45,981 nucleotides of DNA. It comes from Candidatus Dormibacteria bacterium (lineage in GTDB: Bacteria > Chloroflexota > Dormibacteria > DASZGP01). The DNA lies in contig JBHEMP010000070.1 of assembly GCA_046262515.1 (NCBI GenBank), positions 1 through 45,981 of the forward strand, given 5' to 3'. Of this stretch, positions 7,684 through 17,490 are shown piece by piece. The translations under genes were made by a program, and so were the position numbers. How positions within the stretch are numbered: the stretch's first letter is position 1; each line of letters opens with the position of its first letter. The notes beneath the pieces were generated by a model that did not search any database, had not been told where the DNA came from, and saw nothing but the letters and a program-made list of their open reading frames with translations.

Positions 7684-8670
7684 TTGAAGGTCTTCATTAC
7701 CGGTGGCACCGGGTTCATCGGGTCCGAGGTGGTTCGCCGTCTGATCGCCCGGGGGGATTCCGTCACGGCCATGGTCCGCGACCCCACCCGGTGCGGCTCC
7801 CTGGCTGCCGAGGGCGTTCGCCTGGTCGCCGGCGACCTGTCCTCGGATGCAGCCCTGGCGGAAGGCATCCAGGGCGCGGCGGCCGTCATCCACTGCGCGG
7901 CAATTTATGAGGTGGGGATCCCCGCCGCCCGGCGACCGGCAATGCTCGCGGCCAACGTGGAGGGTACGGAACGCGTGCTCCGCCTGGCGGGCGAGGCGAA
8001 GGTCGCCAGGATCGTCTACGTCTCGACCATCAACGCCTTTGGCAACACGGAGGGGCAGGTGGTCGACGAGAGCCACCAGCACAGCCGCCGCTACGTCTCC
8101 TATTACGACGAGACCAAGCACCTCGCCCACCTCTCCGCCAGGGCCGCGGCGGACGCCGGCGCGCCGGTGGTCATCGTGCAGCCCGGCGCGGTCTACGGCC
8201 CGGGCGACCACTCCGCGGTGGGCAGCCTCATCAACCAGTTCATCGCGGGCCGGCTGCCGGCCATGACTTTCCCGGAGACCGGGTTGAACATGGTGCACCG
8301 CGACGATGTCGCCGAAGGCATCCTCCTGGCCCTCGACCGAGGCCGCACAGGGGAGCAATACGTGCTGGGAGGCGAGATCACCACCCTCCGTGGGGTCATC
8401 GAAGCCGTGGGTGCCCTTGTGGACAAAAAGCCGCCGGGGATGACGGTTCCCGCCGGGCTCATGAAGGCGCTCTCCCCGCTCGGCCGGGTCATCGGCCCCG
8501 CGATGGGAGTTGGACCCAACCTCGCCGAGATTGTCAGTGCGAGCGACGGCGTAACCTACTGGGCCCGGGATGACAAGGCTCGCGGCGAACTGGGCTACTC
8601 GCCGCGGAGCCTTCGCGATGGGCTGAGGCAGATGCTCGAGGTCGAAGGTCGTCTTCCCAGCGTCACATAA
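7684..8670 (+). CDS. NAD-dependent epimerase/dehydratase (extended SDR)
   Basis: TGGTGFIG, HCAA and YxxxK (YDETK). TTG start after GGAGGT; the listed 769-aa ORF is over-extended. Confidence 0.9.
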   Translation: MKVFITGGTGFIGSEVVRRLIARGDSVTAMVRDPTRCGSLAAEGVRLVAGDLSSDAALAEGIQGAAAVIHCAAIYEVGIPAARRPAMLAANVEGTERVLRLAGEAKVARIVYVSTINAFGNTEGQVVDESHQHSRRYVSYYDETKHLAHLSARAAADAGAPVVIVQPGAVYGPGDHSAVGSLINQFIAGRLPAMTFPETGLNMVHRDDVAEGILLALDRGRTGEQYVLGGEITTLRGVIEAVGALVDKKPPGMTVPAGLMKALSPLGRVIGPAMGVGPNLAEIVSASDGVTYWARDDKARGELGYSPRSLRDGLRQMLEVEGRLPSVT

Positions 8671-14142: not shown

Positions 14143-14796
14143 GTGCCCGCCTCTGTCGCGATCCTGGGCGGGACCGGGAAGGAAGGCCGCGGCCTGGCGA
14201 TGCGCTGGTCCCGCGCCGGGCGCACCATCGTCCTGGGCTCCCGCGACGCGGAGCGGGCAGCGGTCGCGGCGGAAGAGGTCGCGGCCGCGTCGGGCGGCCC
14301 GGTGCGCGGCATGGCCAACGGGGACGCCTGCGAGGCAGCCGACCTCGTTGTCGTCGCGACGACCTTCGACGGCCTGGAGGACACCATGCGCGCGTGCGCG
14401 GCAAAACTGGAAGGCAAGCTGCTCGTCAGCGCCGTCATCCCGCTCAAGGTCGAGGAGGGCAGGTTCGGGGTCATCCCCGTTCCCCAGGGTTCCGCGGCTC
14501 AGCTGGCCGCGACCCTGGCCCCCGGCGCTCGGGTCGCGGCGGCTTTCCACAACGTCAGCCATAAGCTCCTGGCGGACCTGGACCACGCGATCGACGAGGA
14601 CATCCCCTTCGCGGCCTCGGACGAAGACGCCGCCACAGTAGGCCGGCTGTGCGCTGACATCGGGGCTCGCGGGGTCCATGTCGGCGGCCTCCACCTGGCC
14701 CCATTCCTAGAGGGCTACACGGCCGTCCTGCTGAGCGTCAACCGCCGATACAGGACGCAGGCGGGGATCAGGCTGACAGGGCTTCCGAACCTCTAG
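14143..14796 (+). CDS. npdG: NADPH-dependent F420 reductase
   Basis: ILGGTGKEGRGLA.RW, GSRDAERA, GSAAQ, AAFHNVS and GIRLTGL. Confidence 0.85.
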   Translation: MPASVAILGGTGKEGRGLAMRWSRAGRTIVLGSRDAERAAVAAEEVAAASGGPVRGMANGDACEAADLVVVATTFDGLEDTMRACAAKLEGKLLVSAVIPLKVEEGRFGVIPVPQGSAAQLAATLAPGARVAAAFHNVSHKLLADLDHAIDEDIPFAASDEDAATVGRLCADIGARGVHVGGLHLAPFLEGYTAVLLSVNRRYRTQAGIRLTGLPNL

Positions 14797-14820
14797 CCTG
14801 TACAGCTTCCGAATTGGTGC

Positions 14821-15014
14821 GACAGGGAACCCACCAGGCGAGGGTCCTGTCATTCCCGGCACAACCCGCGTCGCCGGACGGGGCGGAGTTATCGCGGAAA
14901 GCCCCTGGCGGGGCTTCCTCGCCGCCCCTCGAAACTGCGCGCGCCCGTTCTCCAGGTAGCCTCAGTCAATCCGTCCTGCGTGCTCGTCACGCCGCGACAC
15001 GGGTTGCGCCGGGA
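14821..15014 (-). ncRNA. Putative structured RNA A (family unassigned)
   Basis: 21-bp closing stem (14854-14874 with 14994-15014) is fully paired on the minus strand (2 G-U). Internal helices are present, plus a flanking hairpin at 14821-14851. Confidence 0.5.
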
Positions 15015-15098
15015 GCGCCACCCCCGCCTATGCGATCCCTGCATGCACCACGGAACGGCTGATTTGTTGTCAGAGAGACGGAGGTAGGGCGCGAACCA

Positions 15099-15266
15099 CT
15101 GGCGGTTCGGGGGCACGTCTTCCCGGGTGAATCTGGAGCGACCGGCAGGACGATGCCAGCAGCATCCAGCGACTGCGGGAGGACGTGGAAGAGGCGCCGC
15201 GTCGCGGCAGCTACAACATCGGGGCGGCGCCGCTGAACCCGGGGAGGCGTGCCCCCGGACCGTCAG
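15099..15266 (+). ncRNA. Putative structured RNA B (family unassigned)
   Basis: Uninterrupted 30-bp stem (15099-15128 with 15237-15266) with 4 G-U pairs on the plus strand, enclosing two hairpins. Confidence 0.6.
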
Positions 15267-15290
15267 GATCCGAGCCGCCTTACTGTCGCC

Positions 15291-16196
15291 TCATCTTGGA
15301 GGCCGGTCTCTCTGTAGGCGGGACCCGCCTTGGCCGGGATCTTTGCGCCGCCGGGCGGCCAGCCATTCGACGACCCCGAAGCAGGCGGCTGCCAGGACCA
15401 GACCGCCGAGGGCATCGACCAGGTAATGCTCGCCCAGGTAGACGATGCTGAAGATCACGGCCAGGACCCATGCGCCGAGCGGCACGACGGCCCGGGCTCC
15501 GAAAAGCCGTACTCCGTAGAGCATGCCCAAAAAGGGAAAGGCGGTATGCAGTGAAGGGAAGGCGGCCACCTTGTTGGGGGTCATGCTCTTGTAGATCACG
15601 TCGGTGCTGCTCGGGAGGGTGTGGCTGATGATCTTCTCCACGTGTGGGATCAGGCCCTGTTCCGAGGCCAGCCACGGCGGCGCCACAGGGACCAGTAGGA
15701 AGAAGACAAAGGCGGCGAAGCTCATCGCGAGGAGGGTCAAGGCAAAGCGACGAAAGAGCCCGCGGTCCCGGATCCAGAACGCATAGCCCAGCGTCAGTGG
15801 GTACGCGAAGTGGAGGAAGTAGAAGAGTGTGCAGACCACGTCGAGCGCGGACGGTCCCCCGCCACGGTAGAACCAGGCCTGGAGCGCCAGCGTGGGCAGC
15901 GTGCCCAGGCCGACAACATGGTCTGCGGCAATAACCTCCGTGTAGTGGGGGGCGATACCCGTCCTGCCGGCGAAACCCCGCAGGAACTCGTAGCCCAAGA
16001 AGAGCAGGATGAACGGCGCCCAGTCGACGATGAAGGCCTTCCAGCGCCCGAGGACCACCGCGCCGAGCAGGAGTATGAAGACAAAGTAATCGGGCGAGAC
16101 GGAGATGCCACGCCAGACCAGGAACGCGGTGGTGGCCACTACGTAGGCAATGACCGCGGGCACCATGTAGCGGCGCATGCCGCCCCGGCTCTCCAT
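15291..16196 (-). CDS. PAP2-superfamily membrane phosphotransferase (Aur1/IPC-synthase-like)
   Basis: YFLH, PVAPPW, AAFPSLH and HYLVD motifs with multiple TM helices; start uncertain (16178-16262). Confidence 0.85.
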   Translation of the reverse strand: MESRGGMRRYMVPAVIAYVVATTAFLVWRGISVSPDYFVFILLLGAVVLGRWKAFIVDWAPFILLFLGYEFLRGFAGRTGIAPHYTEVIAADHVVGLGTLPTLALQAWFYRGGGPSALDVVCTLFYFLHFAYPLTLGYAFWIRDRGLFRRFALTLLAMSFAAFVFFLLVPVAPPWLASEQGLIPHVEKIISHTLPSSTDVIYKSMTPNKVAAFPSLHTAFPFLGMLYGVRLFGARAVVPLGAWVLAVIFSIVYLGEHYLVDALGGLVLAAACFGVVEWLAARRRKDPGQGGSRLQRDRPPR

Positions 16197-16272
16197 GGCC
16201 GAAAACACTACCGGCAAACCGCGGATCGGTGGACCCCAACTTAGCTCGGCCGCCCCGCTCATATATCGTTAG

Positions 16273-17490
16273 GTGACAATGGCGCCATCAAGTTCTTCGG
16301 TCGCCGCGGAGCAGCTGGAGGCCCTCCTTCAGCACCATATGCGGGCGCCCATTCAACCTTCCGCGGACCTGTCAGACCCTCGGGCCTCGGCAGAAGCGGC
16401 GGGCCTGCGCTACGTCAGCGACACAGAACTAGGGATATCGCGGCGCGTACGCGGCAAGTCCATGCGCTACCAGTGGCCGGACGGTACCTCGGTAACCGAC
16501 CGACCCACGCTGACGCGGATCAAACGGCTGGCCATACCCCCGGCATACCATGACGTCTGGATCTGCCGCCACCCCACGGGGCACCTGCAGGCGGTGGGTC
16601 GGGATGAGCGCGGCCGAAAGCAATACCGCTACCACGAGGAGTGGCGCACGGTTCGCGACGCCGTGAAATTCCACCGCATGCTGGCCTTCGGCGAGGCCCT
16701 GCCGAGGATCCGCGAGCAGGTCTCCGCCGACCTCCGCAAGCGGGGTCTACCGCGCGAGAAGGTGCTCGCCGCGGTGGTCGCGATGCTGGAACAGACCCTG
16801 GTCCGGGTCGGCAACGAGGAGTACCGCGAGCAGAACCAGAGCTACGGACTGACGACACTCCTGAACCGACATGCCCAGCTCAAGGGCAAGAAGGCGCGGT
16901 TTCGCTTCAAGGGCAAGAGCGGCAAGCAGCACGACGTGGAAGTTGACGACCCCCGCCTGGTGCGGGTGGTGCGCCAGTGCCTGGACATCCCCGGCCAGGA
17001 GCTCTTCCAGTGGGTCGACGAGGACGAACAGCCGCACGTGGTGGACTCCGACGACGTCAACAAATACCTGAGGGAGGTCAGCGGGGAGGAGTTCACGGCC
17101 AAGGACTTCCGCACCTGGGCTGCCACCGTGCTCGCCGCCCGCCTCCTTCGCGCCGCGGGGTCGGTGGAGTCCGACCGCAAGGCCAGGACAGAGGTGGCCC
17201 GGGTCATCAAGGACGTCGCGGCTCAGCTCCGCAACACCCCCGCGGTTTGCCGCAAGTCCTACATCCACCCGCGCGTCATCGACTCCTACGTGGGTGGCTA
17301 TATCCGGCCCCTGGTGCCCGTCACGGACGCCCTCCCCGAGCCGGAGCGGAGCCTCGAGGAGGAGGCGCTGCTGGACCTGTTGCGCGAGGGAACCGCCGTG
17401 GTCGAGGGCGCGGCGACGGCATCCCGGCCTCGGCGCCAGCGTCGGCGCTCGGAGACGGGCTGGAGCCCGAGGGTCCTTAAAGGCCGCTGA
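16273..17490 (+). CDS. DNA topoisomerase IB
   Basis: GRDERGRKQYRYH, RVGNEEY, FKGKSG, KDFRTW and NTPAVCRKSYIHP (catalytic R-K-R-N-Y). Confidence 0.93.
   Translation: MTMAPSSSSVAAEQLEALLQHHMRAPIQPSADLSDPRASAEAAGLRYVSDTELGISRRVRGKSMRYQWPDGTSVTDRPTLTRIKRLAIPPAYHDVWICRHPTGHLQAVGRDERGRKQYRYHEEWRTVRDAVKFHRMLAFGEALPRIREQVSADLRKRGLPREKVLAAVVAMLEQTLVRVGNEEYREQNQSYGLTTLLNRHAQLKGKKARFRFKGKSGKQHDVEVDDPRLVRVVRQCLDIPGQELFQWVDEDEQPHVVDSDDVNKYLREVSGEEFTAKDFRTWAATVLAARLLRAAGSVESDRKARTEVARVIKDVAAQLRNTPAVCRKSYIHPRVIDSYVGGYIRPLVPVTDALPEPERSLEEEALLDLLREGTAVVEGAATASRPRRQRRRSETGWSPRVLKGR

Follow-up and report, generated by a model that had tools for sequence, protein, structure and literature searches.

Insertion sequences of the IS481 family use CTAG as target and are bordered by NCTAGN direct repeats, and the TAG of the flank can act as a stop codon (described in passages of PMC6794481 and PMC2516522). 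The window element reported here has the CTAG target and the NCTAGN-type flanks in common with family members such as ISRe46/TnRErm46 of Rhodococcus equi and ISLxc2 of Leifsonia xyli, and the TAG of its flank likewise serves as stop codon of a neighbouring gene. Its IS481-family partner is about 1.1 kb long and encodes one transposase with HTH and rve (DDE) parts, whereas the window element is 515 bp long, contains no transposase and has an unrelated interior.

Correia/NEMIS in Neisseria, ERIC/IRU in enterobacteria and RUP/BOX/SPRITE in pneumococcus are likewise short non-autonomous repeats with terminal inverted repeats (TIR), located in intergenic or 3' positions and forming stable hairpins upon transcription. 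They are linked to IS families other than IS481. Mostly they are single hairpins of 100–200 bp, whereas the window element of 515 bp carries two separate branched modules of about 165 nt with opposite polarity and is tied to IS481. Among the effects that the review PMC10969869 reports for repeats of the Correia, ERIC and pneumococcal kinds are cleavage by RNase III, transcript levels that depend on orientation, and structures resembling terminators. The 6S and Ms1 sRNAs have long closed stems and lengths of 160–190 nt, like the domains in the window; the window element differs from them in being multi-copy, mobile and TIR-bounded, in having no Rfam match, and in being absent at this site from 4/4 congeners.

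In the accessible text of the literature on the IS481 family and MITEs, no description of an IS481-derived MITE was found, and no paper on a MITE family of Dormibacteria was found. IS481 is not mentioned in the main text of the 2024 MITE review (PMC10969869). MITEs are a known kind of element; documented here is a family of them from Candidatus Dormibacteria that is linked to transposases of the IS481 type.

The element, its copies and its distribution

The window, i.e. the whole stretch of DNA that was analysed, comprises 45,981 nucleotides of a Candidatus Dormibacteria bacterium (assembly GCA_046262515.1, contig JBHEMP010000070.1, positions 1–45,981 of the forward strand). Its genome, here G000, is a draft of 2.40 Mb in 182 contigs and is 88% complete. 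In the ORF list, the gap under study is bounded by the stops of ORF 14143..14796 (+) and ORF 15291..16262 (−). We consider this gap to be very probably (probability about 0.88) one copy of a non-autonomous IS481-family derivative, a MITE, in which the two hairpins are conserved internal modules. The features of the locus are as follows.

14143..14796, plus strand: upstream gene, F420-dependent NADP oxidoreductase-like (Pfam PF03807, E 8e-15)
14792..14797, no strand: left flanking hexamer TCTAGC, of the NCTAGN target/duplication type
14798..14825, plus strand: left terminal inverted repeat, CTGTACAGCTTCCGAATTGGTGCGACAG; set by the similarity boundary among copies, with an inverted match to 15283-15303
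14803..14853, no strand: 5' half of the outer stem, pairing with 15015-15061 in the consensus fold of seven full copies
14854..15014, minus strand: left domain, 161 nt; 21-bp closing stem and branched interior, better fold as minus strand
15015..15098, no strand: spacer between the domains, 84 nt; contains an internal inverted copy of the terminal repeat at about 15020-15061
15099..15266, plus strand: right domain, 168 nt; 30-bp closing stem, G-U pairs on the plus strand only
15283..15312, plus strand: right terminal inverted repeat, corresponding to the IRR of an IS481-family IS; 89% over 27 nt to L032 2956-2982
15291..16262, minus strand: downstream convergent gene, PAP2-family membrane protein (Pfam PF14378, E 2.3e-28)
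15313..15318, no strand: right flanking hexamer TGTAGG, degenerate; its TA/TAG core alone matches the left hexamer

The PAP2 gene is adjoined by a bacterial type IB topoisomerase gene at 16273-17490 (+) (PF01028, PF21338).

Through BLAST of the gap, we found seven full copies in G000 at 91–94% identity (contigs C70, C64, C150, C130, C40, C57 and C85), two internally deleted copies (C80 and C53) and four short fragments (C126, C174, C6 and C12); contigs C139 and C150 overlap at their ends and were counted as one locus. The original prediction had read the gap as a pair of stand-alone ncRNAs forming an undescribed system, and had itself named many dispersed copies with target-site features as the pattern that speaks against this reading. 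That pattern was found, and the reading is not supported: the gap is one of many copies of an IS481-related MITE.

Alignment of the copies with their flanks gave an element span of about 14798-15312 (515 bp), of which the left end reads (N)TGTACAGCTTCCGAGATGGTGCGACAG and the right end reads CTGTCGCCTCATCTTGGAGGCCGTTCAG. The terminal repeats are imperfect (14805-14825 against 15283-15303), and the end motifs are kept across G000 and two further genomes, G003 and G002. The right repeat was recognisable in five of nine G000 copies and was absent from C40, C57, C85 and C80. According to the pair list of the consensus fold, 14803-14853 pairs with 15015-15061, which makes the element's left half one long palindrome; the repeat recurs in it as an internal inverted copy, and the left domain is nested inside. 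The outermost 9 nt (columns 14798-14806) showed a pairwise difference of 0.38 against 0.076 for the whole element, which is odd for a terminus recognised by a transposase. None of the three small ORFs in the gap had a Pfam match, and 1-nt indels among the copies break their frames; on these grounds, the gap was judged not to encode a small protein.

In 4/4 genomes of the same genus, the flanking genes are convergent and lie about 12 nt apart without the element, which marks the insertion as lineage-specific; with sequences about 75% diverged, the boundaries of the empty site are not base-exact.

The repeat motif, searched with at most three mismatches, was present in six of the 11 genomes of the family (10 in G000, 20 in G003, three in G008, two in G002, and one each in G001 and G005), with 0 matches for the reversed control. 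An exact scan of the degenerate motif over 185,579 species genomes, one for each species, returned five stretches, exclusively from Dormibacteria and 'Chloroflexi' MAG contigs: a Candidatus Dormibacteria MAG contributed four of them, and the fifth is from a MAG that bears the label Chloroflexi. In the second species, G003, a search gave 38 matches to an element family of about 530–550 bp that shares both the ends and the two-domain layout. The relative in G002 is a single hairpin of about 235 bp with CCTAGG flanks.

Copies with a deleted module occur in both species: C80 of G000 is without the left domain, and the G003 copies L034, L063, L033 and L069 are without one or the other module. From their sequences, they look like independent deletions of palindromes. 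Breakpoints differ among the G003 copies, and the deleted copies are therefore uninformative on the mobility of module-less forms.

Three smaller loci are recorded here. The C80 copy lies about 15–20 nt from a tRNA-Lys(TTT) gene (L008 1356-1429). At about 8520-8625 of G000 contig C6 there is a mini-derivative of about 110 bp with degenerate ends, only the 3' arm of the right domain, and TAAG on both sides. The G003 element is represented at 1501-1600 of L013 (G003 contig C43) by a left end alone, which is directly followed by a 464-aa ORF; on reading, this ORF was judged not to be a transposase.

The partner insertion sequence, the target site and the neighbouring genes

A whole IS of 1123 bp was found at 1862-2984 of L032, a 'Chloroflexi' MAG contig, flanked by CCTAGG at 1856-1861 and 2985-2990. 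The MITE repeat recurs as the right repeat of this IS (TTGAACAGCTTCCAAGATGAGGCGACAG, read inward), whose HTH and rve (DDE) parts are encoded in two frames. NF033577 (IS481) was the best NCBIfam model for both halves, scoring 65.2 bits for the first (profile positions 2-112 of 284) and 130.6 bits for the second (115-277); because a frameshift splits the transposase gene, each half stays below the curated IS481 cut-off of 224 bits. The left repeat of the window element (14798..14825) matches the right end of this IS at 76%. Compared by eye, both MITE ends resemble the IS right repeat, with about 20/28 matches against about 14/28 to the left repeat of L032.

The same transposase tail was found at a contig start of G008 (L041), with 86% identity over 50 residues, followed by CTGTCGGGTCATCTTGGAGGCCGTTCAG and immediately by CCTAGG. 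At the start of G000 contig C26, the last 61 transposase residues (72% identity) are followed by ...ACTGTCGCCTCATCT...GTTCAC and immediately by CCTAAC. From this tail and repeat, the partner IS is therefore present in the genome of the window in unassembled form. No complete autonomous IS was found in the G000 assembly, in which the family searches gave no full IS481, IS630 or IS5-type gene. Between the MITE interior and the transposase of the L032 IS, tblastn revealed no similarity (best E 0.38), and derivation of the modules from the interior or the transposase gene of the IS was rejected for want of similarity to the L032 IS.

Other transposon types were considered as the source and rejected. 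For an IS630/Tc1-type origin, the sole IS630-type gene found, on G002 contig C65 (L027), is CTAG-flanked, has other terminal repeats and shows no motif at the ends of its IS. For an IS5-/Harbinger-type origin, PF01609, PF13359 and PF13586 had no match in G000, and the PF01609 loci of G003 had no matching repeat. A match to the IS481 model on G001 contig C48, about 850 bp from the motif, belongs to a two-ORF IS3-like element unrelated to the motif.

Two of these loci deserve description in their own right. The IS630-family element of L027 (about 929-2049) has a DDE_3 domain, a 360-aa ORF, CTAG on both sides and repeats of the form TGGRCCGTAAC...; being CTAG-flanked, it represents a second CTAG-targeting transposon type in the same genus. 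The two-ORF transposase on G001 contig C48 (L039, about 1190-2326) has an A-run, AAAAAAAG, between its frames, typical of programmed frameshifting in IS3-type elements.

CTAG or CTAA is found at a fixed distance outside the terminal repeats in the other copies. Thirteen elements had both ends (five in G000, six in G003, one in G002, and the IS); among them, the TA core was present on both sides in 13/13, CTAG on both sides in 8/13, and identical hexamers in 4/13 (C64, L034, L058 and L032), so the duplication length (2, 4 or 6 bp) cannot be fixed from so few identical pairs. In G000, with a G+C content of 67%, base composition predicts 7236 CTAG sites but 816 were observed (ratio 0.11), an under-representation of about ninefold. 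CCTAGG occurred in this genome at 0.08 and TTAA at 0.22 of expectation.

Among 13 copies or fragments, nine have a plus-strand ORF ending at most 3 nt from the left end of the element, and nine have a convergent ORF ending at most 21 nt from the right end. At the window copy, the TAG stop of the upstream gene (14794-14796) lies within the CTAG of the left hexamer, and the F420-oxidoreductase-like orthologues of 4/4 congeners end one or two codons later, at TGA. TAG stops inside the flanking CTAG were also found in G003, G002 and L032. The last seven codons of the PAP2 gene and its TGA stop (15291-15293) lie inside the right repeat of the element, and its orthologues match just to residue 311-312 of 323. 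Judged from these alignments, the ends of both neighbouring genes are rewritten by the insertion.

We propose that an IS481-type transposase would recognise the terminal repeats of the MITE and insert it at CTAG (NCTAGN). CTAG has TAG on both strands, and insertions therefore land or survive at the 3' ends of genes, where the flanking CTAG or the element itself supplies the stop codons of the neighbours. This CTAG/TAG logic accounts for the position of copies exactly at gene ends and for the rewritten C-termini. The comparisons show that the window element belongs to an IS481-type family as a non-autonomous member, that it occupies a CTAG where two convergent genes meet, and that their stop codons are supplied or preserved by it.

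The hairpin modules and their strand polarity

The original prediction had placed two long-stem domains separated by an 84-nt spacer in the gap, and an inverted-repeat search recovered both of them at 14854-15014 and 15099-15266. The left arms (14854-14874/14994-15014) are 21 nt long and 90% complementary, the right arms (15099-15128/15237-15266) are 30 nt long and 87% complementary, and these coordinates thus give domains of 161 and 168 nt. Read along the plus strand of the window copy, the closing stem of the left domain departs from Watson-Crick pairing at 14861/15007 and 14869/14999, both of them A.C and hence G-U when the minus strand is read. The closing stem of the right domain departs from it at 15102/15263, 15107/15258, 15118/15247 and 15121/15244, all of them G.T on the plus strand. 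The claim that G-U pairs are confined to one strand, minus in the left domain (2/2) and plus in the right (4/4), was thus reproduced at the same positions. Folding of the 483-nt gap gave z = −5.8 for the plus strand and z = −6.5 for the minus strand; for each strand, 0/100 shuffles folded as well.

By eye, the domains had not been matched to tRNA, tmRNA, RNase P, SRP or canonical 6S, and the Rfam search agreed: there were 0 matches at gathering score in the whole window (6S, tmRNA, RNase P, SRP, riboswitches and others), and E-value mode gave just two chance-level matches to eukaryotic lncRNAs (E 0.98 and 7.2). Consensus scans of 14600-15500 detected no sigma-70-like promoter on either strand and no terminator-like site of the kind with a G+C-rich stem and a following U-run. 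In the window sequence, no U-run follows the left or the right stem.

The left domain was aligned over eight G000 and nine G003 copies, with a mean column identity of 79%. On the minus strand it contains 46 consensus pairs, with 98.8% of cells paired and compensatory double changes in 10/46. The covariation score was 0.267, against at most 0.136 for slid controls, and was reached by 0/500 shuffles. At an interspecies divergence of about 30%, the changes include transversion-type doubles (UA to AU, GC to CG), and there is no fixed mismatch. Most of the compensatory changes separate just two lineages and therefore represent few independent events. Covariation had been suggested beforehand as a check on the structures, and compensatory changes were indeed found across the families of the two species.

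The consensus energy of the left domain is −79.0 kcal/mol for the minus strand against −50.3 for the plus strand. Tallied over the union of pairs predicted on either strand, minus-type G-U occurs in 55 cells at 12 positions (nine of them in at least three copies), and plus-type G-U in five singleton cells. Rare variants (fewer than three copies) show no strand bias, with three minus-type and five plus-type positions; therefore the present copies may drift neutrally, with a polarity inherited from the founder. In the right closing stem, which is alignable between G000 and G003, the variable or wobble positions carry G-U on the plus strand in 5/5 cases in G000 and 8/8 in G003, with 0 of the other type, and one G-U is kept in 19/19 sequences. 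G-U positions are particular to each of the two lineages and fall on the same strand throughout.

Considering single copies, folding energy in the left domain favours the minus strand in 8/8 G000 copies, by 9–17 kcal/mol, and in just 4/7 G003 copies. In the right domain, the plus strand is favoured in 8/8 whole G000 copies, by 14–24 kcal/mol, and in 7/7 G003 copies. The single hairpin of G002 is symmetric and has no strand preference (−166.5 against −167.6 kcal/mol).

A covariance model of the left domain found matches in 2/151 genomes of the class (G000 and G003), solely at the mapped copies or fragments of the element, and the left domain is therefore not a host ncRNA gene. The possibility of a widespread ncRNA was rejected on the same result. 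What stands of the structured-RNA reading in the original prediction is the stems themselves, their conserved pairing and their opposite polarity, which recur in other copies; what does not stand is that they are stand-alone genes.

As a cause of the polarity, transcription-associated deamination was rejected by argument: it predicts the opposite strand for the domain beside each gene, and the changes mix T/C and G/A on a single strand. Taken together, the pairing between species, the compensatory changes and the strand-specific G-U suggest a function of the modules as a single strand, probably as RNA.

Possible roles of the modules

Our preferred reading, which we hold tentatively and at less than even odds, is that the modules are RNA exit hairpins (3'-end, terminator or insulator structures) and not independent ncRNA genes. 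Each module folds best, and tolerates wobble pairs, only on the strand that has its 3' end towards the closer terminus (minus in the left module, plus in the right). The three alternatives below fit this polarity rule equally; on the preferred reading, the modules would act as RNA hairpins in transcripts reading through or out of the element. Serving there as 3'-end, terminator or insulator structures, the hairpins may make an insertion between convergent genes tolerable. Stated for the element as a whole, it is possible, though doubtful, that it constitutes a mobile bidirectional RNA 3'-end/terminator/insulator cassette or else a MITE-borne sRNA pair. Counting against an RNA role are the lack of a promoter- or terminator-like pattern and the lack of a U-run. 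The unbiased rare variants, the symmetric hairpin of G002 and the missing promoter and U-tract terminator also speak against selection that is still at work.

Another explanation, which we regard as unlikely, gives the modules no function at all. They would go back to nested palindromic insertions or to inverted duplications and survive as relics, their palindromes maintained by DNA-level processes such as templated repair from arm to arm and their polarity derived from the founder. A palindromic structure is typical of MITEs, the left half of this element duplicates its own end in inverted orientation, copies without one module exist (C80 and the four G003 loci), and the rare variants of the left domain show no strand bias; moreover, any transition turns an ancestral G-U into a Watson-Crick pair, which would let the polarity persist without selection. 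Such relics are hard to reconcile, however, with 98.8% of cells being paired at about 30% divergence, with transversion-type doubles and no fixed mismatch, and with each lineage having its own G-U positions all on the same strand. Arm-to-arm repair, too, would yield perfect palindromes instead of strand-specific wobble.

It is improbable, in our estimate, that the hairpins act as single-stranded DNA in transposition and so help to mobilise the element. The best-folding strand is the one with the 3'-OH that a DDE transposase exposes (minus left, plus right), the arrangement of the modules shares the two-fold symmetry of the terminal repeats, and the maintenance of pairing along the lineages of both species' families fits selection on propagation; on the other hand, the parent IS has no counterpart of either module, and the G002 family is without the modules. 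We know of no hairpin requirement in IS481- or IS3-type copy-paste transposition. Very improbable is an arrangement of two outward transcription units, in which promoters in the spacer would drive a minus-strand sRNA on the left and a plus-strand sRNA on the right, both MITE-borne. Divergent transcription from the spacer does predict the observed wobble polarity, and QMITEs of Coxiella give rise to sRNAs according to a section of the review PMC10969869, but read-through transcripts leaving the element predict the same polarity equally. The spacer, moreover, is largely an internal inverted copy of the terminal repeat, and 14600-15500 contains 0 sigma-70-like promoters on either strand.

A false lead is removed: the supposed best candidate for an undescribed system has turned out to be a copy of a transposon. 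The rewriting of C-termini by copies of the element matters for the annotation of Dormibacteria MAGs. If the element is such a bidirectional cassette, an IS481-type element could thereby spread, without harm to the host genes, into the junctions where convergent genes of Dormibacteria meet at CTAG stop codons. The conserved, strand-polarised hairpins offer a testable case of a mobile element with an RNA-level or single-strand DNA structure that may be under selection.
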